A DNA stretch of 64,000 nt from Candidatus Thorarchaeota archaeon SMTZ1-45 (GTDB lineage Archaea; Asgardarchaeota; Thorarchaeia; Thorarchaeales; Thorarchaeaceae), in the NCBI GenBank assembly GCA_001563335.1, contig LRSL01000086.1, forward strand, positions 18,839 through 82,838, written 5' to 3'. Below are positions 47,175-63,353 of the stretch, piece by piece; position 1 is the first letter of the stretch, and each line of letters begins with the position of its first letter. A program made the translations under genes and the position numbers. The notes below the pieces were generated by a model. That model made no database searches. It saw only the letters and a list, made by a program, of their open reading frames with translations, and was not told where the DNA came from.

Positions 47175-47245
47175 GTAATGAAAAGGGTGCTCAACAATAT
47201 CAAGGCAGGGTTGCTTGACGCTTTCTCAACGTTTAAGACTGTCAG
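47175..47245 (+). repeat. Array element copy 1 (5' half conserved)
   Basis: aatgaaaagggtgctcaacaatatca ... ctgtcag. Confidence 0.6.
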
Positions 47246-47270
47246 ATGAAGCTTGAGTGTGAATTGAAAA

Positions 47271-48080
47271 ATGAGTATTAACAGTTCAAAATTTGACAAA
47301 ATCAGGAATATGTTAAATGGAAAGAGAGTTCTTGTGGCATTCAGTGGAGGTGTGGATAGTACTGTGCTTGCGCACATAGCAAAAGAGACTGCTGTTGACA
47401 CGAGACTGCTGACCATCGATAGCATTACATTTCCTCGGTCAGAATTGAATGCGGCTGTAAGTATAGCAGCAGAGCTAGGTATTGAACTACAAATCATCCA
47501 AGTTGATGAACTCTCGAACAAAGATTTGGTCAGGAATCCTGTTGACAGATGTTATCATTGTAAGAAAGAGTTGTCTTCTGTCTGGTTGAAAGCTGCAGAA
47601 GACATAGGCATGGATTTAGTTGTTGAAGGGACCAATGCTAGCGAGATGGATGGACATCGTCCTGGTGTAAAAGCGCTTGAGGAATCTGGAGTGATGTCAC
47701 CATTTAGAGATGCAGGCGTCACAAAAGATGAAATTCGAACTTATGCTAGAGAGGTGGGACTCTCAGTTGCTGACAGACCTTCTATGGCTTGTCTCTCAAG
47801 TAGATTTCCATATGGCACTGAAATTACTGAAGATCGCGTGAGGATAATAGATATAGTGGAGAGAGAAATCAAAGAAACCTTTGGTATTGAATGCGTTCGT
47901 GCAAGATTTCATGGTGATCTGGTTAGAGTTGAGGTAGGGAGAGAAGAGAGAAAGAAGTTACTTGATGAAAGCAAACTTGATGAATTACATGAACTAGCGA
48001 AAAAGGCAGGGTTCAAGTATGTCACTCTTGATGCTTTTGGATATAGAACTGGTGCCATGAATGAAACTCTTGAGTCCTAA
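47271..48080 (+). CDS. larE: ATP-dependent sacrificial sulfur transferase LarE
   Basis: AFSGGVDS, NP.DRCY.CK, RPG, ACLSSR.PYG, GYRTGAMN. Confidence 0.92.
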   Translation: MSINSSKFDKIRNMLNGKRVLVAFSGGVDSTVLAHIAKETAVDTRLLTIDSITFPRSELNAAVSIAAELGIELQIIQVDELSNKDLVRNPVDRCYHCKKELSSVWLKAAEDIGMDLVVEGTNASEMDGHRPGVKALEESGVMSPFRDAGVTKDEIRTYAREVGLSVADRPSMACLSSRFPYGTEITEDRVRIIDIVEREIKETFGIECVRARFHGDLVRVEVGREERKKLLDESKLDELHELAKKAGFKYVTLDAFGYRTGAMNETLES

Positions 48081-48213
48081 TGAGTTTTCAACTGTTTCAT
48101 ATAGTCTAAGTGAAAGAGTCTACGAATTTATCCTTCACCAAGACCTTTATTAATTATAGTTAAGATAATTATAGGAAGATGCGTTTACACGTAATGAAAA
48201 TAGGTGATGGGAC

Positions 48214-48615
48214 TTGACTGAAAACCTGAAGATATCTGAAACCATCCAAGCAAAGCCAGAGGACATTTACAATGCTTGGTTAGATGGCGAGAAGCATAGT
48301 GAGATGACTGGGAGCAAAGCAATAGTGGAACTGAAAGTCAATGGAATGTTTACTGCATGGGATGGATATATTGAAGGGAAAACAATTGAAATGAGCCCCC
48401 ATCAAAGAATTGTACAGAAATGGCGTACAACTGATTTTCCGTCTGACAGTCCCGACTCGAAACTTGAAATCATTTTGAAAAGGGTGGAAAAAGGAACAAG
48501 AATAACTTTGGTCCATTCAGAAATTCCCGAGGGCCAGGCTGATGAATATAGAAAAGGTTGGCAGGAATTCTATTTCGACCCAATGAAAAGATATTTCGAA
48601 ATAAAATCAGATTGA
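48214..48615 (+). CDS. SRPBCC/AHSA1-like protein
   Basis: IYNAWLD, F.AWDGYI.G, RIVQ.WR, GW.EFYF.PM. Confidence 0.88.
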   Translation: MTENLKISETIQAKPEDIYNAWLDGEKHSEMTGSKAIVELKVNGMFTAWDGYIEGKTIEMSPHQRIVQKWRTTDFPSDSPDSKLEIILKRVEKGTRITLVHSEIPEGQADEYRKGWQEFYFDPMKRYFEIKSD

Positions 48616-48790
48616 AAGCCTGGTATTTGCGTTGACTTGCCGTTATTAATACAGAATTTTTCATCAGTCTAAGACTTTGTTTTGGAAGTGACCAGGGTCT
48701 ATACCAGCGAGTGTAGAGAGAATGAATCTTGTCAAGGGTCGTGACAATAATAGAAGTAACCTATCTAACTCCATTTCTTTTTGATTGTCA

Positions 48791-49603
48791 CTATTCATCA
48801 TCTATCGACTCCAATTCCTCTGCTTTTTTGATAGCAGTATCAGCGAGAATGAAAGCAAAGGGAGCAGTGAAGATTGAAACCATTAACAATGCGACACTTA
48901 TACCTGATAACCAAGGTATCTCCCCAGATGCAACTAGGATTAGGAATATACCTAGAGTAGACACTGAAACTACAGCAAATACTGAGAACGCTAAGAAATT
49001 CCCTCTATTTGGGGATCGCATGAGAAACCAGCTGTCGGAGATGAGAAGGAGAACAGAGAGCCCAAGATTGTATTTCCGTGCAATCTTTACCAAATTGTTC
49101 GCTGAACTCGCTGTTAACATCAAAGTGAGTATGAAGACGGTTATTGTCAAGACGGAAATAAATTGATTTTGTCCAAGCGTGAGTAATATAAAAATGAAAC
49201 TGAAAAGCACAAGCATAATTCCAAAACCAAATCCAACCTGCATTTTGAACAGATGTATCTCCTCTTTGGGTGTCATAGTCATGGCGGCAGACAGGACACC
49301 ATATCGATCCACTTGACGCTCCTCTCTGACTTGATCGAGTAGAATCAATGCCTTCTTGCCAAGGGCGGTTATCCTGTACTCACCATTGACAGTTTCTATC
49401 AGACCTACTTCTGCGAGCTCTTTGAGATGATAGTTGAACGTACCACTCTCAAGAGATGGGTCAAGACCCAAGACATGCATTAGTTGTGTATAAGAGGCAC
49501 TACCTCTTTTTGAAATGAGCTGAATGATCTCTCTTCTAGTGGAATTCGAGAGTGCCTTTAACACTCCTTCGTGATATTCTCTTGATGACTTCAATAGTAT
49601 CAC
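48791..49603 (-). CDS. ArsR-like winged-helix protein with membrane C-terminus
   Basis: LKALSNSTRREII...SGTFNYHLKEL...YRIT.LG followed by 4-5 TM segments. The track start (49726) lies inside a repeat copy, so the real start is probably ~49594-49603. Confidence 0.75.
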   Translation of the reverse strand: MILLKSSREYHEGVLKALSNSTRREIIQLISKRGSASYTQLMHVLGLDPSLESGTFNYHLKELAEVGLIETVNGEYRITALGKKALILLDQVREERQVDRYGVLSAAMTMTPKEEIHLFKMQVGFGFGIMLVLFSFIFILLTLGQNQFISVLTITVFILTLMLTASSANNLVKIARKYNLGLSVLLLISDSWFLMRSPNRGNFLAFSVFAVVSVSTLGIFLILVASGEIPWLSGISVALLMVSIFTAPFAFILADTAIKKAEELESIDDE

Positions 49604-49705
49604 GTAGTGTTTTGTTTCGAACTTATTTAAGCCATTTTCACGAAATTTTTCGACAATATCTCTGTCAGTTTGTTGAATAATTTCGACATGTTTTATGATG
49701 TTTTT

Positions 49706-49780
49706 TAAAATGACAAGGCTGCTCAACAGTGTGATTTTGTTAGGTTTCCCATGTAAATGATCCTACTGCCTTTTTCTTCA
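49706..49780 (+). repeat. Array element copy 2 (degenerate)
   Basis: aaaatgacaaggctgctcaacagtgtg...gcctttttcttca. Confidence 0.65.
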
Positions 49781-49793
49781 TATCAATCTGATG

Positions 49794-50270
49794 TTAAATC
49801 TCCTTCTCCATCCAGATATTAAAACCCCATGGGTTTGGAATTGAGCTGGTCTGTGTATATCCTCGATTCTTGTAGAATCTGATTGCCCATGTAGCATTAC
49901 AGTCCGTTACCAGTCGTATTTTCTTCAACCCCATATCTCTTGCTACAGCTTCTATATGAGAAACCAGAGCTGTACCGATTCCTTGTTTCTGATGATTTGG
50001 TAATACATAGACCCAGCGGATTCGACCAGTTTCTGCGGCTTCAACGCTCAATGCAGCTACTGCTATAATGCTTCCCTCATATCTGTGTATATAGAAAGTC
50101 ATATTCTCTAAACTTTCTTCATACTCTTTGAGTGTGATAATTGGTTCTCTGAAATACTGCTTTGGAATTATTCGACCAAACGCATCACGATTGGATGAGT
50201 TGATGACATTGATTATTTCTTGAGCATCCTTCAGTTTCGATTTTTCAATAAGAGATTCTGCATCTTTCAA
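49794..50270 (-). CDS. GNAT acetyltransferase
   Basis: YVLPNHQKQGIGTAL; AIRFYKNRGY. Confidence 0.88.
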   Translation of the reverse strand: MKDAESLIEKSKLKDAQEIINVINSSNRDAFGRIIPKQYFREPIITLKEYEESLENMTFYIHRYEGSIIAVAALSVEAAETGRIRWVYVLPNHQKQGIGTALVSHIEAVARDMGLKKIRLVTDCNATWAIRFYKNRGYTQTSSIPNPWGFNIWMEKEI

Positions 50271-50451
50271 ACTACATCATGTATCATTAATGTTAAGGAA
50301 CAATATGAATAATGAGCACTATTCCTAGTTAGCAACCTGAAAGTGTGTTTGATAATCTAGGCTAAGCTAAGTTTCTTCATTATGACTGGAGCGCCTGGTT
50401 GACTAAAACCAGTTTCCAGTTCATTTAGTAGGCTGTCAGGCAGCTTAGTTC

Positions 50452-51207
50452 CTACTGAGAGAGATATTGATCCAAATTGCCTTTCCAATTCTTATGTTCG
50501 TGTTCTGGTAACTCCTGAACTCTGCATAACGGTCTGGCGATGATTTCTCGAATCTCGAAGGACTTGAAGAAATTCATTGTGTATGTTGGTCGAACACATA
50601 GAGCTGTATCGAGCCCCTTGAATGTACCAGCACATGAAATAACATCCTCACCCTCTCTAACTTCTCCAGAGTCCACTGCGATGATTGCTGCCTCAATAGC
50701 AATTTTAGTTCCTGCGCCAAACACCTCGAGTGTCTTATCAATAATCGCCTCAGGTGTAGGGGCGTTCCAGTCTAAGGATCTTGATGGTGGCGCGAAAGGT
50801 CTTGTGCTCTGAACTATCTTGACACCATTACTGATCAAAGTCTCTCGAGTCTCGGAGTATTCAGAACGACTAAGGCCTATTGGTATTCTTCCTTTTGGAC
50901 CCCAGGTCGATGCAGGGTAGTGAGTAACAACAATCAAAACAATATCCAGATCCTTGAAGACATCAAGAACTCTCAAAGCGCTTCGGCCAGTTTCAGAAGC
51001 AACTATTACTTTGGTCAGCCCAAGCGCCTTGCAGCGGTTTCTTGCTGCTAACAATGTCTTTTCAGTATTTATCTCACCACAGTACTGGAAATATAATGTT
51101 GGGCGCTCTACATCACCCATTCGTCTATCATCTCCCTGAAACGTATGGTGCCTTTTGCCTATGAAGATGTGGTCCTTAGAAACAGATATGATAGACAGTA
51201 GTTCCAA
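50452..51207 (-). CDS. Pyruvate-kinase C-terminal-like (MTH1675-type) protein
   Basis: YF...G..NTE.TL, VASETG.SA, FG.G.K.A.E....A.D.G, GLDTA. Start is probably M at ~51120. Confidence 0.8.
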   Translation of the reverse strand: MELLSIISVSKDHIFIGKRHHTFQGDDRRMGDVERPTLYFQYCGEINTEKTLLAARNRCKALGLTKVIVASETGRSALRVLDVFKDLDIVLIVVTHYPASTWGPKGRIPIGLSRSEYSETRETLISNGVKIVQSTRPFAPPSRSLDWNAPTPEAIIDKTLEVFGAGTKIAIEAAIIAVDSGEVREGEDVISCAGTFKGLDTALCVRPTYTMNFFKSFEIREIIARPLCRVQELPEHEHKNWKGNLDQYLSQ

Positions 51208-51228
51208 TACTCTAACACACCGAGAGAA

Positions 51229-51729
51229 GTGAATAATATAGATGATTGCTGTATTATGATATATGTGATAATAATGACTTCAGAAAATCATTCGGAAAAG
51301 GAGTCGATTCTAAGACTTCGTGATAATTGGGAGGAGGCTGTCGCTTTTAGGGTTACAATTATAGATGATGGGAATTGCCGCGCAAATCACAAAGTTGGCC
51401 AAAAGTTTGAATTTAGCTGGAAATCTCCAGAGGGTATTTGCACAGAGAGCCTTGTTGGAATGTATCCCATATTACATTCCATGCGAGTATTTGGTGATAT
51501 GAGGGAATTAGGTAGTTCTGAGCGTAATGTGAGGGTGTATAATTGCCCATCTCGAGAGATCAAATTCAAGATCAAGGCCCTCTACAAATGTAACATATGC
51601 GGAAGTCAGTTACAGGTTAACCAAGATGGAGTTCAATCACTACAACTGCAGTGTACAAAGCCAGAATTTCCCCTACGTGTATGTGAAAGCTGTTATTCCA
51701 ATTATAAAGAGAAGAGAATCGAGTGGTAG
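51229..51729 (+). CDS. TIGR04076-like protein with C-terminal Zn ribbon
   Basis: G.C...HKVGQ.F......P.GIC, CP, then CxxC...CxxC. Confidence 0.7.
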   Translation: MNNIDDCCIMIYVIIMTSENHSEKESILRLRDNWEEAVAFRVTIIDDGNCRANHKVGQKFEFSWKSPEGICTESLVGMYPILHSMRVFGDMRELGSSERNVRVYNCPSREIKFKIKALYKCNICGSQLQVNQDGVQSLQLQCTKPEFPLRVCESCYSNYKEKRIEW

Positions 51730-51751
51730 TATCAATAGCAGTATGATTATC

Positions 51752-51824
51752 TAAAAACAAATAGGGCGTTCAAGAGAACACTACTAAGGCAAAGCCCCTG
51801 TTCTACAAATCCGATCAATCTTAC
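51752..51824 (+). repeat. Array element copy 3 (degenerate)
   Basis: aaatagggcgttcaagag...aggcaaagcccctgttc...atcaatcttac. Confidence 0.55.
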
Positions 51825-51877
51825 ATATTGTAACTATTAGGTTAATCGTGGTATGTTTTTGTCGCACCACATATTTT

Positions 51878-51899
51878 ATAATGAATCTTGATTCATTAT
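51878..51899. promoter_or_regulatory. Palindromic operator ATGAATC-N2-GATTCAT (site 2)
   Basis: ataatgaatcttgattcattat overlapping TATA-like ttttata; matches the site at 24641. Confidence 0.75.
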
Positions 51900-51947
51900 T
51901 TATTGCCGTTGTTGGGATTTCAATCTCAAAATAACATTTGAGAGAAG

Positions 51948-52805
51948 GTGTTCAAGACGTCAAAAGTTGTTTCTAAAGTAAGTGAGATGGTTCCGCCTGA
52001 AGTAAAAGAGAATATGAGAGATGTGAAACACAAAATCGTTGTACTCTCTGGCAAAGGTGGTGTAGGTAAGACCACAGTCGCAACTAACATGGCAATGTTA
52101 TTTGCAAAGAGGGGACTCAAGTCTGGAATCCTCGATGTCGATATATATGGACCAAATGTGCCTAAACTCTTAGGTCTCGAGGGTGAACACCCACACGCAG
52201 AACACCAAAAGCTATTGCCAGTTGAGGGACCACTGGGTCTCAAAGTGATGAGTATGGGTTTTCTTCTTCGAAACAGTGATGATGCTATTGCTTGGAGAGG
52301 TCCATTAGTGGGAAAGGCTATTCAGCAATTCCTAAGTGACGTCAAATGGGGCGAGCTGGATGTGATCGTTGTTGACCTACCACCAGGCACAGGAGATGAG
52401 ATTCTGAGCATTCTCCAGTCAATTCCTGAGATTGATGGTGTCATTATTGTATCAACTCCTCAAGAGGTCGCTGTATTGGATGCACGTCGAGCAATTCGAC
52501 TTGTAGAGAAGATGGGAGTACGGATTCTTGGTATTATAGAGAACATGAGTGAGTTTGTATGTCCACACTGTGGTAAGTCGTACAATCTTTTTGGAGAAGG
52601 TGTGACTCAGAAAGCCGCCAACGAGTTTGGAATTAGGCACCTCGGCTCCTTACCACTAGATCCAAGAATCATCAGCCTCTCTGATAGGGGAACTCCTTTT
52701 GTCGTGGAAGACCCAGAATCCAAAGCTGCCAAAGCATTTGGAGTGGTCGTTGATCAGCTCAGTAAGACAATCGGCATCAAAAAGAATCAGGGTGAGAAAA
52801 AATGA
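51948..52805 (+). CDS. mrp: Mrp/NBP35 Fe-S cluster carrier ATPase
   Basis: SGKGGVGKT, DVDIYGP, WRGP, DLPPGTGD, ENMS..CPHC. Confidence 0.93.
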   Translation: MFKTSKVVSKVSEMVPPEVKENMRDVKHKIVVLSGKGGVGKTTVATNMAMLFAKRGLKSGILDVDIYGPNVPKLLGLEGEHPHAEHQKLLPVEGPLGLKVMSMGFLLRNSDDAIAWRGPLVGKAIQQFLSDVKWGELDVIVVDLPPGTGDEILSILQSIPEIDGVIIVSTPQEVAVLDARRAIRLVEKMGVRILGIIENMSEFVCPHCGKSYNLFGEGVTQKAANEFGIRHLGSLPLDPRIISLSDRGTPFVVEDPESKAAKAFGVVVDQLSKTIGIKKNQGEKK

Positions 52806-53089
52806 GAGGTGGATATGGACGGTCAGGCAGTAGAGGTCGTTGGCCAGGAAATGGTCCATTCCAGGACCTACCACCATGGGAGAGACCTGGTTGGCTCTAT
52901 GGACGTGGATCTTGTTGGTATATGGGATATCGTCCCGGTATTGACTATACAGTTCAGCCATTTTCAGTAGCCAACAATCTTCAATCTTTGCAGAGCCAAA
53001 AAAAACTGCTTGAAGAACAAATCAGAAGTCTTCAGGATAGACTAAAGAATATTGAGAAACATCTGTCAGAGATTCAAAAACAGGAGTAG
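52802..53089 (+). CDS. DUF5320-like small protein
   Basis: Gly/Arg-rich N-terminus, WPG.GPF..LPPW.RPGW, C-terminal coiled coil. Confidence 0.7.
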   Translation: MRGGYGRSGSRGRWPGNGPFQDLPPWERPGWLYGRGSCWYMGYRPGIDYTVQPFSVANNLQSLQSQKKLLEEQIRSLQDRLKNIEKHLSEIQKQE

Positions 53090-53136
53090 ATTATCTACAG
53101 GTGTGAATAACGAGTGGTACTAATGGTACCGAAACG

Positions 53137-54147
53137 ATGTGTATAACTATGACATACACATATGGCCCAGTGGCATCATGGCGCTATGGACGCTCTTTGG
53201 GAATTGATGTAACGACTCGTCCAAAGAAGTGCACCTTCAACTGCATCTATTGTCAATTGGGCTCAACGATAGAACATGTAGTTTCACCAGATGATATTCT
53301 AGATAAATTGCCATCTTCTCAGGATATCCTCAAAGAGGTCTATAGTGTTTTAAGACGGTTAGATTTGAACTCCATCGATGCTGTAACATTCTCTGGAGCA
53401 GGAGAACCCACTCTAAACTTGGAAATTGGTGTGTTAGCAGATGCAATAAAAAGAGAGATTCAGAGTTTACCTCTTGTACTTCTGACAAATGCATCACTTC
53501 TCCAAACCCCTGAGGTGAGAAAGAACCTTACTGGATTTGATATTATTTCTGCCAAGATGGATGCAGGTGATGATAGAACCTTCAGACTCATCAATCATCC
53601 AGCACGGGGTATTTTCACATTGGATGACATTATTGATGGCATTAAGAAACTACATAAACAGATGTATGGCACTCTGGCTCTAGAGGTCATGCTTCTAAAA
53701 GGACCACAGGGATTGACGAATGCAGAAGGACAAGCTAGAGGAGCACTCATTGAGAGGATTCTTGAGATCACACCTGATGTTGTACAGATCTACACTCCTT
53801 GGCGTCCCTCTGCAGTTGAGGGCATTCAACCACTCTCAGTCAACATTCTACACGAGTTTGGGCAGGAGCTTGGTGAGTATCTTGGCATGGATAAAATATG
53901 GGTTTATGGTTACCATGATGCCCGAAACAAACCCGTGAGATGGAAAAATCATAATAAAATTGAGAATGAGATCATTGATCTACTCAGACGCAGACCATGC
54001 AGAATTTCGGATGTCATAGTTTCCATGGGAATAAAGACAGCACTCGCGAAACACATCCTAAACAGCCTTCTCAAAAGTGGAGAGGTATCGATACAGAAGA
54101 TAGAGAATGAATCCTTCTACAGAATCGTTAATTATCCAGAGGTTTGA
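53137..54147 (+). CDS. Radical SAM protein with C-terminal wHTH (TYW1-like subfamily)
   Basis: YGPV.SWRYGRSLGID, CTFNCIYCQLG, GEPTL, RRPC. Confidence 0.88.
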   Translation: MCITMTYTYGPVASWRYGRSLGIDVTTRPKKCTFNCIYCQLGSTIEHVVSPDDILDKLPSSQDILKEVYSVLRRLDLNSIDAVTFSGAGEPTLNLEIGVLADAIKREIQSLPLVLLTNASLLQTPEVRKNLTGFDIISAKMDAGDDRTFRLINHPARGIFTLDDIIDGIKKLHKQMYGTLALEVMLLKGPQGLTNAEGQARGALIERILEITPDVVQIYTPWRPSAVEGIQPLSVNILHEFGQELGEYLGMDKIWVYGYHDARNKPVRWKNHNKIENEIIDLLRRRPCRISDVIVSMGIKTALAKHILNSLLKSGEVSIQKIENESFYRIVNYPEV

Positions 54148-54194
54148 ATAGAGGAATTCAACATTGTCATGAGTCCCTCTCAGAGGAATTGAAA

Positions 54195-54274
54195 TGTAAA
54201 ATGAAAAGGGTGTCCAATACTGTAAGGAATGGAAGATTGCCTTACTCATCCAACATTATCAACCTATACTTTTT
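54195..54274 (+). repeat. Array element copy 4 (degenerate)
   Basis: tgtaaaatgaaaagggtgtccaatactg...tcatccaacattatcaacctatacttt; aligns end to end with the copy at 61216. Confidence 0.65.
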
Positions 54275-54387
54275 GCCCATCATAGTAGCATCTAAGATAG
54301 ACTACAAACCGTTTTTCTTGATGAGCTTTAATGAAGCACATTCATAATGTGTTGTAATAATACAGATTGTTATGGTCATGTGAAACT

Positions 54388-54897: not shown

Positions 54898-55037
54898 CCT
54901 GTATTATGAATTCGGAGCATGTTCAACTATGAGAAATTGAATCATGATTCGCTTCATAACGTTGAGTCGTGGGTAATATTAGACTTTCGCTTTAGAATGG
55001 CAGAATTTCTATCCCCTGCGTGCAATGTTTACTACTA

Positions 55038-55702: not shown

Positions 55703-55850
55703 GGTAGATTGAATAACTACATTATCAGATATCTGTTATTGGAGATACTCACCGTTACAACTAAACTACTGGAACTACTCAAACAGGAAGCTAAGCAACT
55801 GGATTAAACATAACGTTAGTATTGACTTGTTCTCGTTTGTAAGTAATTTA

Positions 55851-55931
55851 TCAAAATGAAAAGTGTACTCAACAACGTCAGAAAGGGAAAGTTCCCTGTT
55901 CACTCGACCCCGTCAGCCTCTACTTCAAACA
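55851..55931 (+). repeat. Array element copy 6
   Basis: aaaatgaaaagtgtactcaacaacgtcagaaagggaaagttccctgttcactcgaccccgtcagcctctacttcaaaca. Confidence 0.9.
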
Positions 55932-55951
55932 TTGTATGAAGAATATGTAAA

Positions 55952-56785: not shown

Positions 56786-56886
56786 TGTAAATCAACTCAC
56801 TCTTTGACCCCTGATGATAATTAGATATGGGTTGGATTTGTGTCTACTTGTGGATAAATTCGATTCTAAATAGCAAATGCACAAAA

Positions 56887-56966
56887 ACACAAGAAAAAAG
56901 GTGCTCAATAGTGTCAGAAGAGGAGAGTTCCCTGTTCACCCGACCCCGTCGGTTTCTGCCCTTACC
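56887..56966 (+). repeat. Array element copy 7
   Basis: aagaaaaaaggtgctcaatagtgtcagaagaggagagttccctgttcacccgaccccgtcggtttctgcccttacc. Confidence 0.9.
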
Positions 56967-56993
56967 AGTTTAGAACTGATAAAGCTCGACTTT

Positions 56994-57563
56994 TTAGGAC
57001 GCATTACAAATCTTGTTAGCTAGTTCACGAACCTCGGCAACTAGTCTAGTATTCTTTTCGGCATCCCCTATGTCATTTGCAGTTCCATGAACAATCCCCA
57101 AAGTTTCCCCTTTCATATAGCGTATAAGATGTTTGATAGAATTTATCGCATGTTGAACTCCGGATTCTTTAACATTAGTATCTCCGTAAACAAAGAGAAC
57201 AGCAAATCGTTTTCCATCTAACTTGTGACCGCCTTTAACATGCAATGCTACTAATCTGTCAATGAATAATTTCAGTTGACCAGAATAATTGAACCAGTAT
57301 ATTGGTGATGCAAAAATGATGGTGTCAGCTTCGATAATTTTCGGGTAAATCTCATTCATATCATCGTCATCTTGAACGCATCTTAGAGGAAAACCTTCGT
57401 AGCACCAGAAACAACCTCGGCAGTGTTTAATGTTGAGTTCATGAAGATGAAGAATTCTTGATTCCATCCCTTTCTTTTCTAGTATATCATTCATCTGGTT
57501 AATTAAGTAACGAGTATTGCCCTTTCTTCTTGCGCTACCGTTCAGAATCAGAATTTTACTCAT
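56994..57563 (-). CDS. Iron-sulfur flavoprotein / NADPH-dependent FMN reductase family
   Basis: GSARRKGNT, CRGCFWC...C, ASPIYW, K.FIDR. Confidence 0.9.
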   Translation of the reverse strand: MSKILILNGSARRKGNTRYLINQMNDILEKKGMESRILHLHELNIKHCRGCFWCYEGFPLRCVQDDDDMNEIYPKIIEADTIIFASPIYWFNYSGQLKLFIDRLVALHVKGGHKLDGKRFAVLFVYGDTNVKESGVQHAINSIKHLIRYMKGETLGIVHGTANDIGDAEKNTRLVAEVRELANKICNAS

Positions 57564-57615
57564 GATAAGACCAGGTTGATTGGTAAGTAATAAGCATGTA
57601 GTTCAACGAAAACGA

Positions 57616-57699
57616 TGTAGAAGAGAAAGAGTGGATCAACAGGTTAGGAAGGGGATAGTTCCCTGTTCATCCCCACTCAATTAGCCTCTACTTCTTAGA
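57616..57699 (+). repeat. Array element copy 8
   Basis: tgtagaagagaaagagtggatcaacaggttaggaaggggatagttccctgttcatccccactcaattagcctctacttcttaga. Confidence 0.88.
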
Positions 57700-57766
57700 A
57701 CAATGAATTAGGCGATTTTCAACCAAGTTTTGGTATGGGTACTTGAAACTGCATCAAGCATAAGGT

Positions 57767-57790
57767 TAGTACTGTCTTAAGACAGTACTA
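57767..57790. other. Perfect 24-bp palindrome in an ORF-less inter-repeat unit
   Basis: tagtactgtcttaagacagtacta equals its own reverse complement. Confidence 0.85.
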
Positions 57791-57818
57791 GATAATCAGG
57801 AATAGAGAAGGAAAAAGA

Positions 57819-57895
57819 TGCAATATAGAGAAGGTGCTCAATAATGCAATATGCGTAATCCTCCAAATACCCTACAACCAACCTCTACTTCTCAC
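57819..57895 (+). repeat. Array element copy 9 (ends conserved, core replaced)
   Basis: tgcaatatagagaaggtgctcaataatg ... caacctctacttctcac. Confidence 0.72.
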
Positions 57896-58045
57896 TACAT
57901 GGGCGCCATAGCTTTTTCTCAGTCCAAACATCAAAGCTCAAGTGACTCGGGACCCTGTTGCTCAATGCATATCCAAAATCTAATGTGGGACAGAGGCATC
58001 TGATTGTGGTAAATGAGTAGATACACGCTCCAGTGAGGAATTAAT

Positions 58046-59014
58046 TTGAACTGGGAATCCTTACTGCACAAGAATCTCTTGCAATGGCTGTTAGATGGAG
58101 AGCCTTGGGTTATCTATCGGACTTTGACATGGCTACTAGATAAGCCGGAGAATGATGATTCAGTATTAGAAGCAAAAAGGATGGTTCCCAAGCATCCAAT
58201 GATAGAAGGCATCTTCGCAGGCTTGAATGCGAACGGATACTGGGGGAAACCGGAGGATATACATACCTGGTGGCCCAAGAAATTCACCACATTCTGGCTG
58301 CTACCAGTCCTCGCAGATTTCGGTCTAACGATAGATGATAAGAGAATCGCGAAAGCTTGTGAATATGTGTTCACTACACAGCTTCAATCTGGTGCTTTTG
58401 GATGGTCTCCACCAACAAAACCCGGAGAGTGTCATACTGCAATACTTGTCGAAGCAATGGCAAAGCTTGGTCTTTTGCATGACTCAAGAGTACAGAGTGC
58501 CTACAGATGGCTCGTCAAGAAACAGCGCCTAGATGGCGGATTCTGGTGCAAGAACACTGGTCTGATAGGGAAACCAAGAGAGAAAGAGCCAAGCTGTGCT
58601 TTTGCAACTATGTTCGTGCTTGGAGCAATGGCTCAGAATCCTAGGTTAAAAGAGAGTATAGCTGCGAAGAGGGGGATCAGGTTCCTGTTTAAATGCTGGA
58701 GAAATCGTGGGAAAATGAAATATGCTGGCCATGACAGTGAGATTGGACATGGTTGGGAGAAGTTGAAATATCCGTTTACAGAATATCGTATTCTGAAGTT
58801 CCTTGAAGTTCTGTCGCAGTTTAAGCATTCAAAGCAAGAGCTTCTTAGATCTGGACTGGTTGACCTACTACTCAAGAAACGTGACAACGATGGACGGTTC
58901 ACACCCGAGTCAATCCATAGAGCTTGGTCTGATTGGGACTTTGGACAGAAACAGAAACCGTCGAGATGGATTACTCTTTGCGCTTTGCGGATTATGAAGA
59001 GTGCAATTGAGTAG
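58046..59014 (+). CDS. Prenyltransferase/squalene-cyclase-like alpha-alpha toroid protein
   Basis: QW-like repeats (Q.QSGAF, WL...QR.DGGF); LKYP; PSRWITL.A. Confidence 0.78.
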   Translation: MNWESLLHKNLLQWLLDGEPWVIYRTLTWLLDKPENDDSVLEAKRMVPKHPMIEGIFAGLNANGYWGKPEDIHTWWPKKFTTFWLLPVLADFGLTIDDKRIAKACEYVFTTQLQSGAFGWSPPTKPGECHTAILVEAMAKLGLLHDSRVQSAYRWLVKKQRLDGGFWCKNTGLIGKPREKEPSCAFATMFVLGAMAQNPRLKESIAAKRGIRFLFKCWRNRGKMKYAGHDSEIGHGWEKLKYPFTEYRILKFLEVLSQFKHSKQELLRSGLVDLLLKKRDNDGRFTPESIHRAWSDWDFGQKQKPSRWITLCALRIMKSAIE

Positions 59015-59099
59015 AAAGATCTTTAATTGAATTCAAGTGTACAGCAAGTCAACATACTGTATTCTTTCACTATGGATATCCTATGTCATGTTTATATAT

Positions 59100-59184
59100 T
59101 GCAAAAGAGAAAGGGTGCTCAACAGTGTCAGAAACGGGAAAGTTTCCTGTTCACCGCCCACGTCACCCTTTACTTCTCTTTACA
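59100..59184 (+). repeat. Array element copy 10
   Basis: tgcaaaagagaaagggtgctcaacagtgtcagaaacgggaaagtttcctgttcaccgcccacgtcaccctttacttct. Confidence 0.9.
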
Positions 59185-59339
59185 ATCAATCAATTCATTT
59201 TTCCCACGCTTCTTTCATTATAAGATTTCTTTTCAGAAACTCCTTCATCAAGTCTTCTGGAACTTTGCTCATTCTGCATGAGAAATTGGTACAGATTTTG
59301 CATGTACCTCCTCTGAGCATCTTGTCAAAGGAAACAGCT

Positions 59340-59626
59340 AACATAAAGAAAATTCATGCACGCGCATTATTAGCTCATACAGCAGAGGCACTATTTGTTT
59401 CTGTAATATTCTCATAAATATACTACAAGAAGTTCAATTATTCTGGTCCGCTCATAACAGCAATATTGATAGTAACCACGGTAATCTTGCTTGACTTTTC
59501 CTGACCGCTACAATAATCCTTCAAGACTATGCTGTGTTCAACAATCCTGTTGGAACTTGGATCCCATTCGCCCTGATCTTCATAGCTACTATGATAGTTA
59601 GAATTTATTTGAATAGGAGTGTATAG
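59340..59626 (+). pseudogene. Decayed membrane-protein gene
   Basis: ..ALLAHTAEALFVSVIFS*IYYKKFNYSGPLITAILIVTTVILLDF / frameshift / LTATIILQDYAVFNNPVGTWIPFALIFIATMIV..; internal stop plus frameshift; 5' boundary approximate. Confidence 0.6.
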
Positions 59627-59674
59627 TATCTCTAGTTTGGAGTGAGTTTCTTCGATTACACAGAGATGAATTTT

Positions 59675-59730
59675 ATAAAATGAAGAAAGTGTTAAAAATG
59701 TCAGAAAAGCTAATTCCTATTTCGCCCAAT
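59675..59730 (+). repeat. Array element copy 11 (strongly degenerate)
   Basis: aaaatgaagaaagtgttaaaaatgtcagaaaagctaattcctatttcgccc. Confidence 0.45.
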
Positions 59731-59764
59731 TCTATAAGGTCCTAATATTAGTAGTCATCGTGAG

Positions 59765-61210
59765 GTGATTGGGATGAAAAGCTTTCTTATTTTTCCTGCT
59801 CCAGATGTCATAAACCTTAGATATTCTACTCCAACATTAAGTCCTCCACTTGGTCTTCTCTATATCGCCTCTTCGTTACGCGAAGCTGGAGTCGAAGTCA
59901 GACTTGTTGACCAGTTGGGAGAAAAGATACCTGATGAAAAGATACTGAGGAGAGTAGAAAGATACTCTCCAGATGTAGTTGGTTTGTCATTGATGTCATG
60001 GCAGGCAAAAAAAGCTGCAAAACTGGCGGCTATGATTAAAGAGAAACTTCCTGACACTCATATAGTATTTGGAGGCGTGCATGCATCAATCAACGCCGAA
60101 CGAATGATGAAAAAATACATCCAAATCGATTCAACTATTGAGGGAGAGGGCGAGCTATCTATGGTCGAGCTTTTCAAAGCTCTAGAACACGGGAATTCTA
60201 TTCAAACAGTATCTGGTATCTATTACCGTGAGAACGGGAAAGTGAAGAGAGGTGCCTCTAGACGTCTTATAACCGATCTCGATTCTTTGCCACCACCTGC
60301 AATGGACTTGGTTAAGAAGGAATGGTATGGTCAATTAGAAGGATTGAAGTTACCATCGATGGTGTCTATGGTGTCTTCTAGAGGTTGTCCTTTCTCATGT
60401 AATTTCTGTTGCTGTAGTCAATTCGCAGGTAGGAAGTGGCGTTCACGGAGTCCTGAGAATGTGGTGGATGAGATTGAGGACCTATTAGCAGCAGGATATG
60501 AGACCATTTTCTTTGTTGATGATTGTTTTACCCTAAATAAGAAGCGTATATTGCGGATTAGTGAGCTAATTAAAAGGCGGAAACTCGAATTCAATTGGCT
60601 TTGTGAGGGAAGAGTTGACCAAATTGATTATCAAATGACTAGATCTATGGTCACGAGTGGTTGCAAGCTCATCTACCTTGGAATAGAGAGTGCAAATCAA
60701 AGGATACTTGATTTTTACAAGAAGAAGATAACTCCTCAAATGAGTATTCAAGCAGTAAAGACCTCTCGTAAGGCAGGCTTAGATATCATTCTTGGTACAT
60801 TCATCATTGGAGCACTTGGTGAAACAAGGAGCGAAATTCAAAATACTATCGATTTCACAATGAAACTCGATATTGATTTTCCTCAACTGAATATATTGGG
60901 AGCAATGCCGGGGACTGACATTTGGAATCAGCTAGTGAATCAAAAGTATATAGATCCTGAGGTGTATTGGGAAACAGGGGTCCTCGTTCCAGATATCTAT
61001 CCCAATTCGGTGAAGACCGATATTCTAGAAAGATGGATTACTGAAGTCTATGAGAAGTTTGTTCATAGAAAAAAATACCTACTGAAACAGATACTTATGA
61101 CGCTGAAGAGCAAGTATAGGATGCAACTTTTATTGAGAAATATGAGTCATGCGGGTAATATCTTAGATTATGTGAAAGGAAAAGCTGATGTCAATGGAGA
61201 AAAACACTAG
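59765..61210 (+). CDS. B12-binding radical SAM protein
   Basis: PPLGLLYIAS, GGVHA, GEGE, SRGCPFSCNFC, F.DDCF, GIESANQ. Confidence 0.92.
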   Translation: MIGMKSFLIFPAPDVINLRYSTPTLSPPLGLLYIASSLREAGVEVRLVDQLGEKIPDEKILRRVERYSPDVVGLSLMSWQAKKAAKLAAMIKEKLPDTHIVFGGVHASINAERMMKKYIQIDSTIEGEGELSMVELFKALEHGNSIQTVSGIYYRENGKVKRGASRRLITDLDSLPPPAMDLVKKEWYGQLEGLKLPSMVSMVSSRGCPFSCNFCCCSQFAGRKWRSRSPENVVDEIEDLLAAGYETIFFVDDCFTLNKKRILRISELIKRRKLEFNWLCEGRVDQIDYQMTRSMVTSGCKLIYLGIESANQRILDFYKKKITPQMSIQAVKTSRKAGLDIILGTFIIGALGETRSEIQNTIDFTMKLDIDFPQLNILGAMPGTDIWNQLVNQKYIDPEVYWETGVLVPDIYPNSVKTDILERWITEVYEKFVHRKKYLLKQILMTLKSKYRMQLLLRNMSHAGNILDYVKGKADVNGEKH

Positions 61211-61215
61211 AGTAT

Positions 61216-61298
61216 TGCAAGGGAAAAAGGATGCCTAACAGTGCGTGGAACTGGAAAGTTCTCTGTTCATCCGACACTATCAGCCTCTGCTTCTTACT
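61216..61298 (+). repeat. Array element copy 12
   Basis: tgcaagggaaaaaggatgcctaacagtgcgtggaactggaaagttctctgttcatccgacactatcagcctctgcttcttac; starts 5 nt after the upstream stop. Confidence 0.88.
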
Positions 61299-61336
61299 AA
61301 TTTGAGAACTGGTTGTATTTATCTTGGACCATTTAA

Positions 61337-61957
61337 TTGCAAGTAAGGGGCGTTTCAAAAGTGTCATATTATCAAGATGTGAAGGACCCAAACATTCCAG
61401 TTGAAGTTGTTAAAGCCAGATTGGAAAATATCTGTGCGATTCTTGATATCAATCCACCAGAAACAATTGTCTATGAGGAATCATGGGGGTCTTTTCAGAG
61501 GCCTCGATTGCTAGATGATGGTAGAACGATCATTCTTTTTAAAAGCCAGGACGATTCTGTCCTAAACTGGCAGATATGTAATCTCTATCATACCTTGGCA
61601 AGTAGGAAATCTCCTAGATGGATTGTTCGCCATGTATTCTCCTTCATGCTTCTTCCAGTCATCTTTGTGACAATCAATGTGTTTGCTTTGATCTATCTTG
61701 AGGTTGGATCTTTTGACATAGGTTTATCTCTCACAGTTTTTCTTCTTCAGTTTCCATTTGCTGCATTTAGTTGGTATTGGAAAAAAGGACTTGAAGACGA
61801 CATAATACTATGGAGAAGCAGTATGAAACAAGCAGGGCTATGGCCTGATAATATTGGAAACCATTACAACAAGTTGCTCAAGAGAATTCCATATGCAATG
61901 ATACTATTTTTCATATTTTTCGCATTGTTATTTGGTTGGATGATAGTAACGAGTTAG
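61337..61957 (+). CDS. Hypothetical membrane protein
   Basis: Soluble N-terminal half plus three TM segments; fills an inter-repeat unit. Confidence 0.65.
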   Translation: MQVRGVSKVSYYQDVKDPNIPVEVVKARLENICAILDINPPETIVYEESWGSFQRPRLLDDGRTIILFKSQDDSVLNWQICNLYHTLASRKSPRWIVRHVFSFMLLPVIFVTINVFALIYLEVGSFDIGLSLTVFLLQFPFAAFSWYWKKGLEDDIILWRSSMKQAGLWPDNIGNHYNKLLKRIPYAMILFFIFFALLFGWMIVTS

Positions 61958-61972
61958 AAAATGAGTCTAAAA

Positions 61973-62055
61973 TGCAAAAGAGAAGGGGTGCTCAACAGTG
62001 AGCAGCTCGGGAAAGGTCCCTGTTCAACCGACCCTGTCAGCCTCTACTTCTTACA
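61973..62055 (+). repeat. Array element copy 13
   Basis: tgcaaaagagaaggggtgctcaacagtgagcagctcgggaaaggtccctgttcaaccgaccctgtcagcctctacttcttaca. Confidence 0.92.
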
Positions 62056-62093
62056 CATCCATGAGTTCTATTCCTACATCTATGTCCTTTTCC

Positions 62094-62597
62094 TTATTCT
62101 AGTTCAGAGAGGACTCTGGAATACAACGCAGCTGACATGTGAAAGGTGGTTTCTTCAACAAGAGAACGAACTTTGGCGTGTGATTCCTTCTTCGATAGTA
62201 TTCCTTTCTTTGTGGCAGAAAGAATGATTCCGATAGTTCCTGTCATCCTGAGTCCAAGAGTTCTAGCTACGTCTCTTGCAGCTAGATCGTCAATGACTAT
62301 TACAGAATCTGATTTTTGCTTCTTGATATGATAAGCGAGTACAAGTGCATCTACCTCCCCTTGATGGAGTCCCATTTCATTAAGCTTGCCTGCGAGTGGG
62401 CTTTCTGGCACCTCTGACACAGTCAACCAGTCCGAGAAAGCACTTTGCAGAGTCGCATATTCTGATTCTGATGTATCAAGAACCTCCACCTTGACAGTAC
62501 CAACAGTGAAAACCTGGTCGAACAGTCGTTGTAATAGGTCAAGAAGTCCTAGTTTTCCTAAATAGATGAGAGGCGATGAGTTGACGATTGCAATCAA
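62094..62597 (-). CDS. PIN-domain toxin (DUF3368/VapC-like)
   Basis: VNSSPLI.L, L..GE..A..LA, IDD..AR..A..LG....GT.GI. Confidence 0.88.
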   Translation of the reverse strand: MIAIVNSSPLIYLGKLGLLDLLQRLFDQVFTVGTVKVEVLDTSESEYATLQSAFSDWLTVSEVPESPLAGKLNEMGLHQGEVDALVLAYHIKKQKSDSVIVIDDLAARDVARTLGLRMTGTIGIILSATKKGILSKKESHAKVRSLVEETTFHMSAALYSRVLSELE

Positions 62598-62598
62598 T

Positions 62599-62913
62599 TC
62601 ATATGCCCTCTACGAAGGTCAAGTCCTCTGTAAGCGTTTGTTCATCATACATGGTCACTTTGCGTTCAGCTAGTTCTCTCATCATTGCTCTTAGTGGTAT
62701 TTCAGCAATAGATGCTGCCTTCCAGATACTGAGCCGTCTAGCTTCAACTTCCTCAGAAAGATAATCGAGAAGATCGGCTGAAAGAGACCTATCGATGAGC
62801 TGTCTCACATACGATGATTTGTCAACTATCTTTCTTTTCTCCATCAAGAAAGTAAGGCGTTTTTCCAGCTCCTTATCCATTCTCACTGAGAGTACATCGC
62901 CCATTCCTATCAT
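62599..62913 (-). CDS. Antitoxin (RHH plus UPF0175-like)
   Basis: LSVRMD RHH strand, KSSYVRQL, LSIWKAA.IA; adjacent to the PIN gene. Confidence 0.82.
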   Translation of the reverse strand: MIGMGDVLSVRMDKELEKRLTFLMEKRKIVDKSSYVRQLIDRSLSADLLDYLSEEVEARRLSIWKAASIAEIPLRAMMRELAERKVTMYDEQTLTEDLTFVEGI

Positions 62914-62942
62914 GTATACTATGTATGACAGAGTATATGAAG

Positions 62943-63140
62943 TTATCCATTTTTATCTTTTAGTTCATCAAGTGGAATAAAGTCCTCTTATTCAAGAATC
63001 TGTTTCTGACGTTTGATGAACTCAATCTGTTCGTGTCTTCTGATTAGACGGAGGAGTGTATCGCTGAAATTCTCACCTGGTAATCGTGCTTCCTCCAAGC
63101 AATTGTAGGCTTCCTCAGTTATCCTAATCTTTTTGGTCAA
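62943..63140 (-). pseudogene. Orphan VapB-like (DUF217-type) antitoxin with premature TAA
   Basis: MTKKIRITEEAYNCLEEARLPGENFSDTLLRLIRRHEQIEFIKRQKQILE*EDFIPLDELKDKNG*; missed by the ORF track. Confidence 0.68.
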
Positions 63141-63213
63141 TTTGCTTTCCCAGATTTCACTACACTCTGTCGAATATAAAGCTGAAAGAAACTAATACTA
63201 GGGGATTGAATGA

Positions 63214-63296
63214 TGTTAAAGAGAAAGGGTGCCCAACAGTGAGCGGCTAGGGAAAGGTCCCGTTAGCCAACCCCGCCCGATAGCCTTGTACTTCGT
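63214..63296 (+). repeat. Array element copy 14
   Basis: tgttaaagagaaagggtgcccaacagtgagcggctagggaaaggtcccgttagccaaccccgcccgatagccttgtacttc. Confidence 0.88.
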
Positions 63297-63353
63297 GTCC
63301 GTCTTAGATATTCGATGTTATAATCTGAGAACTCAAGCGAATCATCAATACAG

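Follow-up and report, generated by a model that had tools for sequence, protein, structure and literature searches.

A cassette array built on repeats of the 16S rRNA 3′ trailer in Thorarchaeota

The 64,000-nucleotide stretch of Candidatus Thorarchaeota archaeon SMTZ1-45 analyzed here (GenBank assembly GCA_001563335.1, contig LRSL01000086.1, positions 18,839–82,838; hereafter the window) carries an array of direct repeats that separate unrelated accessory genes. Our analysis revealed that the repeated element, read on its complementary strand, is the 16S ribosomal RNA (rRNA) 3′ trailer, one strand of the leader–trailer processing stem, and that the region is a fast-changing cassette array whose modules are exchanged as units, breaking within the repeat. 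We refer to the assembly that contains the window as G000 and to its contig as C86; the other genomes and contigs are labeled in the same manner.

The identity of the element is apparent in a relative from the same genus, G005, in which the last element of the array starts ~16–20 nt past the 3′ end of the 16S gene and lies on the opposite strand, so that its reverse complement is the 16S 3′ trailer. The G005 16S leader contains element-like sequence in the sense orientation, and an iterated profile of the element matched the leader copy on the opposite strand in both G005 and G012. Co-folding of leader and trailer gave energies of −82.5 and −108 kcal/mol for G005 and −91.6 and −141.6 kcal/mol for G012, and a trimmed G005 leader and trailer are predicted to form a duplex with long paired blocks (−88.5 kcal/mol). 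In the co-folds of both genomes, the 16S flanks are complementary over tens of base pairs, as in a processing stem. Eight of the 14 window copies, read in the trailer sense, pair with the G000 leader at z ≤ −2.5, and four reach ~−70 kcal/mol. The outer, leader-pairing blocks are the best conserved part of the element, with a per-position identity of 0.7–0.9 versus 0.3–0.6 in the center, and the ‘RYYYAAC-like box’ falls within the outer helix formed with the 16S leader. The original prediction, made from the DNA of the window, had treated this site as a non-canonical integron box and overlooked the origin as a 16S trailer that the co-folds disclose. At the core boundary, the duplex predicted from folding energy for one genome, G005, has a helix of 4 bp bordered by one bulge of 1 nt and one mismatch; the canonical bulge-helix-bulge, with its pair of 3-nt bulges, is absent from this one predicted leader–trailer duplex.

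Fourteen direct-repeat copies of ~85–95 nt span positions 47170–63300 of the window, all on the plus strand. Alignment of the 14 originally claimed sites gave a consensus of ~85 nt, and a repeat search of the window returned a direct-repeat family restricted to 49.7–63.3 kb. A first profile, trained on the 14 window copies and run against the whole 3.54-Mb, 119-contig assembly, yielded exactly 14 matches on C86, all on the plus strand (E = 7e-7 to 2e-20), and three marginal matches in the rest of the assembly (E = 1.3–2.5). Because such a test is circular, a second profile was made from 97 elements of other genomes, with zero window sequence, and the whole assembly was searched again. This independent profile recovered 13 of the 14 copies as the sole matches on C86, all on the plus strand, nine of them at E ≤ 2.7e-6 and four (47177, 49706, 51754, and 57819) at marginal values of 0.018–0.11. 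The copy at 59675 was not found by the independent profile, and its support consists of the self-trained profile (E = 7e-7) and its position only. Neither profile detected a copy in the first 47 kb of the window. The only match of the independent profile off C86 falls on contig C47, on the opposite strand and ~120–190 nt upstream of a partial 16S gene, and is the 16S leader copy of G000. The ~14 homologous, intergenic, same-strand copies first described, with none in the first 47 kb, were thus reproduced in full by the self-trained profile and in 13 cases by the independent one, and the profile scan proposed for the contig, the genome, and Asgard relatives confined the G000 copies to 47170–63300 and found the element in relatives. 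The copies are as follows, with the nhmmer E-value of the self-trained profile given first.

47170–47266, plus strand: element copy 1, degenerate; E = 2.1e-7, independent profile 0.018
49703–49791, plus strand: element copy 2, degenerate; E = 3.2e-8, independent profile 0.022
51751–51844, plus strand: element copy 3, degenerate; E = 1.4e-8, independent profile 0.066
54193–54283, plus strand: element copy 4; E = 6.8e-15, independent profile 7.8e-7
55037–55127, plus strand: element copy 5; E = 9.6e-10, independent profile 2.7e-6
55848–55941, plus strand: element copy 6; E = 4.5e-18, independent profile 4.6e-17; pairing with the G000 16S leader at −70.5 kcal/mol, z = −4.8
56887–56975, plus strand: element copy 7; E = 4.3e-17, independent profile 2.7e-14
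57615–57709, plus strand: element copy 8; E = 3.1e-14, independent profile 5.9e-12
57817–57904, plus strand: element copy 9, degenerate; E = 8.6e-9, independent profile 0.11
59097–59193, plus strand: element copy 10; E = 1.7e-19, independent profile 1e-16; left side of the joint 59119→63234 (run X3, one contig)
59672–59762, plus strand: element copy 11, the weakest; E = 7.3e-7 with the self-trained profile only, absent from the independent-profile matches
61213–61306, plus strand: element copy 12; E = 1.5e-18, independent profile 2.7e-14
61971–62059, plus strand: element copy 13, nearest to the consensus; E = 1.7e-20, independent profile 7.2e-22
63211–63300, plus strand: element copy 14; E = 2.5e-12, independent profile 5.4e-16; 63218–63279 identical to the next copy past the window end

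The copies are intergenic. Two called open reading frames (ORFs) overlap them, namely 48791–49726, whose start was probably called too far upstream, and 59037–59417, which has no family match and is taken to be spurious. The base composition of the array is the same as that of the rest of the window (GC 0.39–0.44). An Rfam scan of 44000–64000 (E ≤ 1) gave one chance-level match, RF03091, at 32.6 bits versus a gathering score of 94.4, and a tRNA search of the window found none.

Three relatives hold the array inside a long contig (G017:C205, G012:C81, and G005:C24), where Rfam matches and maps show that it ends at a complete 16S gene transcribed towards the array. In these complete loci, the array runs from a gene for an MBL-fold hydrolase to the 3′ end of the 16S gene. 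The window (C86:18839–82838) stops where the contig stops, and the G000 array is therefore truncated. We compared the window over 46000–64000 with assembled contigs (not raw reads) of four public sequencing runs from four different studies, one of which may be the source sample of G000. In all four runs, a contig passes position 64000 into sequence identical to 63218 onwards (joint 64000→63218), and in run X1, a loose end at 63279 leads into sequence like the 16S-proximal trailer of the relatives; this most recent G000 duplication has sharp limits and comprises ~62 identical nt (63218–63279). From the joint and the loose end, we infer that cassette 14 is followed by a further copy, the genuine trailer, which leads into the 16S gene, and that the window ends one cassette short of that gene. 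The assembled part of the G000 16S gene lies at the start of C47.

The read contigs contain other joints as well. A single X1 contig connects 50027 to 54419, from the interior of the GNAT gene to the interior of the Dps gene, skipping 4,391 bp; no element is involved on either side, and the shorter arm of the joint measures only 30 nt. Further joints, 48315→48418 and 48440→48559, occur in runs X3 and X4. On the 16S side of the relatives, the last element and the M1 peptidase gene are separated by small ORFs (families F51–F53) that have no Pfam match. Most of these lie within the 16S gene and its flanks and were set aside as probably spurious. The M1 peptidase of G017 has no match in G000 at E ≤ 1e-20.

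The element is present in 21 of the 24 sampled genomes of the genus (165 elements on 34 contigs), all of them metagenome-assembled genomes (MAGs), one per species. Within each contig, elements are clustered and lie on a single strand, leader copies excepted. Outside the genus, the element profile gave only chance-level matches (E ≥ 0.08), and an exact-pattern scan of genome contigs was too unspecific, returning mostly chance matches in bacteria. The 129 inter-element intervals have a median length of 1,275 bp (interquartile range 819–2,137 bp, extremes 324–8,896 bp) and contain one ORF of at least 80 amino acids in 68 cases, two in 25, and none in seven. Cargo ORFs lie on both strands, 102 on that of the element and 139 on the opposite one, and the cargo is heterogeneous and accessory across the genus, with a ParE toxin, a glycyl-radical enzyme, RACo, methyltransferases, Dps, transporters, and regulators.

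Modules of the window reappear in other species in a new order and with new neighbors, and their orientation relative to the element is constant in all those checked. Among 12,552 between-genome element pairs, a shared flank is found on the left side alone in 68 and on the right side alone in 124, and in no pair on both sides. In base-level alignments, the identity of a shared left flank enters the 5′ part of the element and then falls, and the identity of a shared right flank begins in the element's 3′ part. All maximum-likelihood breakpoints fall inside the element, with the left-linked part ending at median position 27 (n = 17) and the right-linked part starting at median position 69 (n = 41). 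A hybrid element in G006 has the left flank of the G017 element at 12765 (96%) and the right flank of the G017 element at 14785 (97.7%), so that the two genomes differ by two whole cassettes gained or lost between elements. The module gain, loss, and reordering for which the original prediction had suggested looking in relatives were found, with breakpoints in the element, and we saw neither genome-wide copies in both orientations nor a fixed gene order free of breakpoints at the element. What survives of the proposed site-specific gene-capture array is a set of exchangeable cassettes at one uniformly oriented locus; its assignment to the integrons does not.

G012 carries, in addition to its main array, a lone good copy (L040; G012:C12, 6835–6913; 55 bits) on an 83-kb contig, 1.3 kb from a tRNA-Sec gene (8230–8316).

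Array contigs also contain pieces of the 16S gene itself. Fragments of 27–43 nt from the 16S 3′ end (~positions 1460–1502) were found in G017 (two), G012, G010, G004, and G001, and all start within ~8 nt of one position, in the conserved ...CCTTGTTA... stretch, which we take to be the ‘1492R’ primer site. The G017 fragments have an extra hairpin before the anti-Shine-Dalgarno tail that the resident G017 16S lacks, and this difference suggests that they were imported from another lineage. In many members of the family, helix 45 and the anti-Shine-Dalgarno tail are separated by an extra hairpin of ~30 nt (16S 3′ ends of G003:C186, G091, G089, and G063); the G005 and G017 16S lack it, and fragments inside the arrays carry it.

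The ends of the copies were mapped by aligning each to the genuine trailer of its own genome. The distal end is near-fixed, ~13–32 nt (mostly 17–25) past ‘TGAGC’, where a T-rich tract closes the stem; this holds in six genomes from three genera (G005, G017, G012, G082, G097, and G101), and the end is less regular in G063 and G092, from two further genera. Proximal starts fall into classes relative to the 16S 3′ end: −56/−42, +8–19, +26–31, and +37–39. The mapping shows that the copies are segments of the 16S 3′ end plus trailer, variably truncated on the 16S side and sharing a common far end.

We also surveyed the regions downstream of 20 additional 16S genes within the same taxonomic class. 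Own-trailer direct repeats were present in G082 (4–5 copies), G063 (2–3, one of which takes in the last 16S bases), G097 (5), G092 (4), and G101 (1), so that trailer repetition of this kind extends to at least four further genera of the family. G025, G042, and G091 have no trailer repeat within 15 kb, and six of the 20 fetched stretches hit a contig end within ~300 nt of the 16S 3′ end. In 19 genomes from other Asgard families, eight carry one or two direct copies of a 16S flank (four of the five in family f5, the one f25 genome, and one of the two in f13), and the remaining families have none. In G112, from family f5, the 16S gene is followed by ~6.6 kb of cargo, a 113-nt flank copy (94.7% identical), a LAGLIDADG-like gene, and a tRNA whose anticodon is TCT. 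Some 16S matches span 2.1–3.6 kb versus the usual ~1.5 kb (G071:C82, G065:C2, G089:C10, G014:C73, G133:C71, G102:C5, G036:C1, and G194:C9), and these over-long genes probably contain large insertions or introns.

The integron-like cassette system of the original prediction did not hold. Complementary R′′/R′ boxes (RYYYAAC/GTTRRRY) at attC spacing (50–150 nt) occur in none of 163 elements on either strand; nine on each strand have both motif types at that spacing, not complementary. The RYYYAAC-like box reported without a GTTRRRY partner is real in this respect, a fitting heptamer being found in model columns 15–30 of 121 of the 163 elements, none with a complementary partner. An RNAalifold consensus, computed for the plus strand, contains no pairs, and folding as single-stranded DNA surpassed shuffled sequences at z < −2 in one of the 14 copies on each strand, the same copy in both cases (59097). 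Paired attC boxes, an attC fold, and cassette co-orientation are all missing, and no IntI was found. Tyrosine recombinases (PF00589) were detected in none of the five genus genomes searched (G000, G017, G012, G013, and G005), compared with 14 of 14 controls, and searches of five genomes of the genus gave no match to the archaeal-type integrase PF16795, the Y1/HUH transposase PF01797, or the reverse transcriptase PF00078; these MAGs are 80–97% complete. The serine recombinase family PF00239 rose above the cut-off in G001 only. No searched recombinase class is common to the array genomes; Cas1, DDE transposases, and TnpB were not searched for. The recombinase expected at the array end was not found either, the two ends being the MBL-fold hydrolase gene and the 16S gene. 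Beyond the genus, PF00589 has no match in G082 and G092, both of which have arrays, or in G042, and it has eight matches in G097 and one in G063. Genomes with no PF00589 match would also lack a recognizable XerA-type dimer-resolution enzyme.

The short, functionally unrelated cassettes, among them a toxin–antitoxin (TA) pair and an empty unit, and the frequent RYYYAAC heptamer would fit a genuine integron or a CALIN (attC sites clustered without an integron integrase), with divergent attC sites and IntI encoded elsewhere; integrons, mostly CALINs, are reported as enriched in Asgard MAGs (PMC9668308). Set against the missing box pairs, fold, and tyrosine recombinase, cargo on both strands, and an element accounted for as 16S trailer, this possibility is hardly credible. 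Repeats of a selfish kind, such as miniature inverted-repeat transposable elements (MITEs) or repetitive extragenic palindromic (REP) sequences inserted between genes, are just as implausible. The element is indeed short, non-coding, and intergenic; however, it occupies one locus per genome on one strand, has no terminal inverted repeats and no self-fold beyond chance, and is homologous to the adjacent 16S trailer. The uniform orientation that had been held to argue against MITEs is confirmed by this single locus and strand.

We lean, with moderate confidence, towards a mechanism in which cassettes accrete and shuffle by recombination in the trailer repeats, most likely through host homologous recombination and gene conversion. 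Two repeats would recombine, so that a circle is looped out or a block deleted. The circle, or incoming DNA anchored on the conserved 16S gene, would then recombine back into a repeat, and this re-entry would leave a complete trailer at the 16S gene and a displaced copy beyond the new cargo. General host homologous recombination would be the likeliest catalyst, gene conversion would keep the copies near the resident trailer, and the 16S gene would provide a long, near-identical homology arm for DNA from other species. Homologous recombination is favored because the genomes share no searched recombinase class and because the copies track the trailer of their own genome more closely than those of the other two (identity 0.81 vs. 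0.71/0.71 in G005, 0.79 vs. 0.75/0.69 in G012, and 0.88 vs. 0.80/0.73 in G017). The spread of the breakpoints points the same way, since their medians of 27 and 69 along 88 positions are near the values of ~29 and ~59 expected, by hand arithmetic, for two random crossovers.

Several points weigh against host homologous recombination. It reshuffles cassettes and leaves the birth of new single-gene units unexplained, and it does not account for the fixed distal end and the classes of proximal starts, which fit a dedicated nicking or integrating enzyme equally well. The polarity by which copies near the 16S gene would be more trailer-like is weak and mixed, with rho = 0.64 (p = 0.047) in G012 and 0.48 (p = 0.085) in the window, and is non-significant in G005 (0.33) and G017 (−0.25). 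Turnover is not total, as G004 and G013 share a syntenic block of 3.3 kb at 85%. The only read-level joint between elements (59119→63234) comes from one contig of run X3 with a 30-nt side and could equally be an element sequence variant; no recombination event was seen directly. The recombinase search covered five Pfam families in 80–97% complete MAGs, where many cargo and neighbor ORFs belong to no family. The breakpoint spread is poorly resolved, with a fast-diverging center, near-invariant outer blocks, and wide support intervals, and the relatives, with one genome per species, are not mutually independent.

It is possible, though a tentative idea, that a dedicated, as yet unrecognized enzyme acts on the 16S trailer. 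Candidates would be a nickase, a homing-type endonuclease, or a recombinase with site specificity, and every insertion on the 16S side would duplicate the trailer between a fixed distal cut and a variable second cut, resembling the leader-proximal repeat duplication of clustered regularly interspaced short palindromic repeats (CRISPR) or the insertion at attI in integrons. Such cuts would produce the near-fixed distal end seen in most genomes, the few classes of proximal starts, the sharp ~62-nt block of the newest G000 duplication, and the shared start, within ~8 nt, of the internal 16S fragments; the predominance of single-gene units (68 of 129) is not readily produced by undirected recombination. 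Homing-endonuclease genes lie beside duplicated 16S flanks in two lineages, HNH in G017 and LAGLIDADG in G112, and a similar element between a 16S gene and tRNA-Arg is reported in PMC8813620. The HNH gene encodes 182 residues on the minus strand of the G017 array (L013:16952–17500, in G017:C205), with a 3′ end that overlaps a foreign-type 16S fragment; it was rejected as the array enzyme, being confined to G017 among the array contigs and the five genomes searched. LAGLIDADG matches in the genus were likewise discarded, as they lie within very long ORFs far from the arrays and are intein-like. Moreover, tyrosine, serine (G001 excepted), Y1/HUH, and archaeal-type integrase families are missing from the genomes searched, the breakpoint estimates are spread and not at a single point, and a fixed distal end could be inherited through later repeat-by-repeat exchanges. 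A bolder and rather doubtful proposal is that Thorarchaeota, and in a simpler form some other Asgard lineages, hold a distinct gene-capture platform on the 16S trailer, in which each entry beside the 16S gene duplicates the trailer and which is run by an unrecognized enzyme family or a co-opted rRNA-processing or homing nuclease. If so, the 16S-anchored array would also make it easy for genes to pass from one species or genus to another.

The copies might also be kept for a function, as terminators or insulators beside a strong rRNA gene or as decoys of the 16S leader, with turnover being secondary. This seems improbable as a full account, and it does not exclude recombination in the repeats, with which it is compatible. 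The leader-pairing blocks are the best conserved, leader pairing at ~−70 kcal/mol would still be open to several copies, and the reverse strand ends in a T-rich tract, the kind on which archaeal RNA polymerases terminate. However, the same conservation is expected of young derivatives of a constrained trailer, degenerate copies persist, a T-tract alone would suffice for a terminator, and the shuffling, the hybrid elements, and the 16S fragments would be left unexplained. An RNA-mediated origin is very unlikely. It would have DNA copies of the released pre-16S 3′ trailer RNA inserted with cargo, with the 3′ end set by transcription termination and the 5′ ends varying by processing or incomplete copying, and in the RNA sense, the copies do share a 3′ end at the T-rich tract and vary in 5′ truncation. 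Yet no PF00078 reverse transcriptase was found in the five genomes searched for it, a single locus and a single orientation are unlike retro-insertion, and cargo lies on both strands (102 vs. 139); nor can a processing site be linked to the repeat boundary in the predicted duplex, which has no canonical bulge-helix-bulge at the core boundary.

By analogy with known systems, the array appears to work like an integron, but its closer likeness is to arrays that accrete in tandem where an RNA gene ends. With integrons and CALINs, including those reported in archaea (PMC9668308), it shares an array at one locus, units of ~1 kb, mostly single-gene and unrelated cassettes, TA modules, empty units, and cassettes reshuffled between relatives. 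In contrast to integrons, no IntI was found here, cargo is encoded in both directions, the repeat has no R/L boxes or hairpin and originates in the processing stem of an rRNA, and the fixed array end is the 16S gene and not intI/attI. The word ‘rRNA’ is absent from the archaeal-integron paper (PMC9668308). The ssrA-specific tandem islands of Dehalococcoides, located at the tmRNA 3′ end, are described by McMurdie et al. 2011 (PMC3146451); like our array, such tRNA/tmRNA islands adjoin the 3′ end of a gene for a structural RNA that is left intact, leave displaced copies of the 3′ end or flank as direct repeats, and form a hotspot of strain-level variation. They differ in that the target here is the 16S gene and its trailer, the units are mostly single genes and not islands of several kilobases, and no integrase or integration module was found in the units and genomes searched. 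The repeats expected of an RNA-gene island are present as trailer copies and 16S 3′ fragments, with an intact 16S gene at the array end in G005, G012, and G017; no integrase was found (no PF00589, PF16795, or PF01797, and PF00239 only in G001). The Tycheposon arrays of Prochlorococcus are a similar case.

HeimM2, reported by Wu et al. 2022 (PMC8813620), is an element between the only 16S gene and tRNA-Arg(TCT) of a Heimdallarchaeum genome, and places foreign DNA directly downstream of the 16S gene in another Asgard lineage. The G112 locus is similar, although we do not equate G112 with the published genome. HeimM2 is a single insertion with a homing endonuclease, unlike an array of up to ~15 repeats with single-gene units. 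CRISPR arrays, compared for mechanism only, are also polar arrays at a fixed leading sequence, where acquisition could duplicate the adjacent repeat; the units here are genes and not spacers of 30–40 nt, and their spacing is irregular (324–8,896 bp).

No description of rRNA-trailer repeats separating gene cassettes was found in the literature searched, most subscription journals lying outside the search. If our reading is true, the array would be a second, independent solution to the problem solved by integrons, with accessory genes kept in an ordered store open to exchange, one that relies on an rRNA-processing sequence in place of attC/IntI, in the group of archaea closest to eukaryotes. It would set a hotspot of gene turnover directly against the 16S gene, which is both the taxonomic marker and the most conserved homology, suggesting a route of transfer between species. 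The array also offers an explanation for the frequent position of 16S genes at contig ends in these MAGs and calls for caution in the automated annotation of integrons and repeats in Asgard genomes. Questions that become testable are whether RadA or a dedicated enzyme acts, whether insertion is polar, and what effect extra trailer copies have on rRNA maturation.

The flanking gene and the cargo of the window array are listed below.

46081–47067, minus strand: far-end flank, MBL-fold metallo-hydrolase gene (328 aa); Pfam Lactamase_B, 1.2e-22
47271–49726, mixed strands: cassette 1, PP-loop ATPase (47271–48080, plus), AHSA1/SRPBCC (48214–48615, plus), and wHTH regulator (48791–49726, minus); Pfam
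49794–51729, mixed strands: cassette 2, GNAT (49794–50270, minus), PK_C-like (50452–51207, minus), and TIGR04076-family ORF (51229–51729, plus); Pfam/NCBIfam
51948–54147, plus strand: cassette 3, ParA/NUBPL-type P-loop NTPase, DUF5320, and radical SAM; Pfam
54388–54897, minus strand: cassette 4, Dps/ferritin-like; Pfam Ferritin, 1.3e-27; 91% amino acid identity to the G014 copy
55199–55702, minus strand: cassette 5, TrmO-like; Pfam TrmO_N, 8.9e-39
55952–56785, minus strand: cassette 6, DUF6879 protein; Pfam
56994–57563, minus strand: cassette 7, NADPH-dependent FMN reductase; Pfam FMN_red, 4.9e-28; 88–89% amino acid identity to the G011 and G004 copies, in other contexts
57710–57816, no strand: empty unit of 107 nt between copies 8 and 9; no ORF of at least 50 aa inside
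58046–59014, plus strand: cassette 9, prenyltransferase/squalene-cyclase-like alpha-alpha toroid protein; Pfam SQHop_cyclase_C, 5e-8
59194–59671, no strand: unit of 478 nt without a credible gene; the sole ORF, 59037–59417, overlaps copy 10 and has no Pfam match
59765–61210, plus strand: cassette 11, B12-binding radical SAM enzyme; Pfam; 80% amino acid identity to the G016 copy, which has other neighbors
61337–61957, plus strand: cassette 12, ORF of 206 aa; no Pfam or NCBIfam match
62094–62913, minus strand: cassette 13, DUF3368 (167 aa) and UPF0175 (104 aa); Pfam; same pair in G012 beside another cassette
63354–63962, minus strand: cassette 14, PEMT/ICMT-like methyltransferase; Pfam; 81.5% amino acid identity to the G014 copy

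Pfam matches bear out the cargo first read from the window, namely GNAT, AHSA1/SRPBCC, FMN reductase, TrmO, Dps/ferritin, a PEMT/ICMT-like enzyme, two radical-SAM proteins, and DUF3368 with UPF0175, and the empty and decayed units described with it correspond to the 107-nt unit and to the 478-nt unit that has no credible ORF. The window was also said to encode no recombinase, and none was found among ~50 scanned cargo and flank ORFs, several of which have no family at all. Cassette 13 is a probable TA pair, DUF3368 being presumably PIN-like and its combination with UPF0175 presumably a TA module, and cassette 14 is presumed to be the final one before the genuine 16S trailer. Several modules recur in other combinations. 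The PP-loop gene of cassette 1 is present in G013, G005, and G004, and its wHTH gene in G013. The genes of cassette 2 are split elsewhere into element-bounded units of their own, with GNAT alone in G008, PK_C together with another gene in G012, and the TIGR04076-family ORF alone in G013. The three-gene block of cassette 3 is also found in G022 and G014. In the cassette 9 gene, each of the four runs has a contig in which one nucleotide is inserted after 58281 and one is deleted at 58285, a compensated frame variant that makes up about half of the summed depth.

The MBL-fold gene occupies the place of intI in an integron, and ORF 46081–47067 was considered as an integron integrase and ruled out, being an MBL-fold hydrolase. 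The nearest solved structures of its product are hydrolases of the paraoxonase/lactonase type and not nucleases. Orthologues lie at the far end of the array in six other genomes (seven in all), several with intervening genes, and the core genes for L10e, an SSB-like protein, and TFIIB lie beyond it, upstream. Partial elements, comprising the 3′ half only, are found beyond the MBL gene in L024 (G016:C91, 2990–3038) and L025 (G011:C325, 931–987), so that the gene is bracketed by elements in these two genomes and may be an old cassette there.

Two further observations concern coding motifs in the window. The 26-nt repeat GGAAAGGGTGGTACTGGAAAGACCAC and its variants, at 25583, 26421, and 52050, probably encode the P-loop in three paralogs of the ParA/MinD type, one of which is cargo of cassette 3. 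A LAGLIDADG_3 domain at 19119–19412, within an open frame of ~1005 aa, is probably an intein in its host protein, and the same arrangement is seen in G017:C205 (113552–113845).

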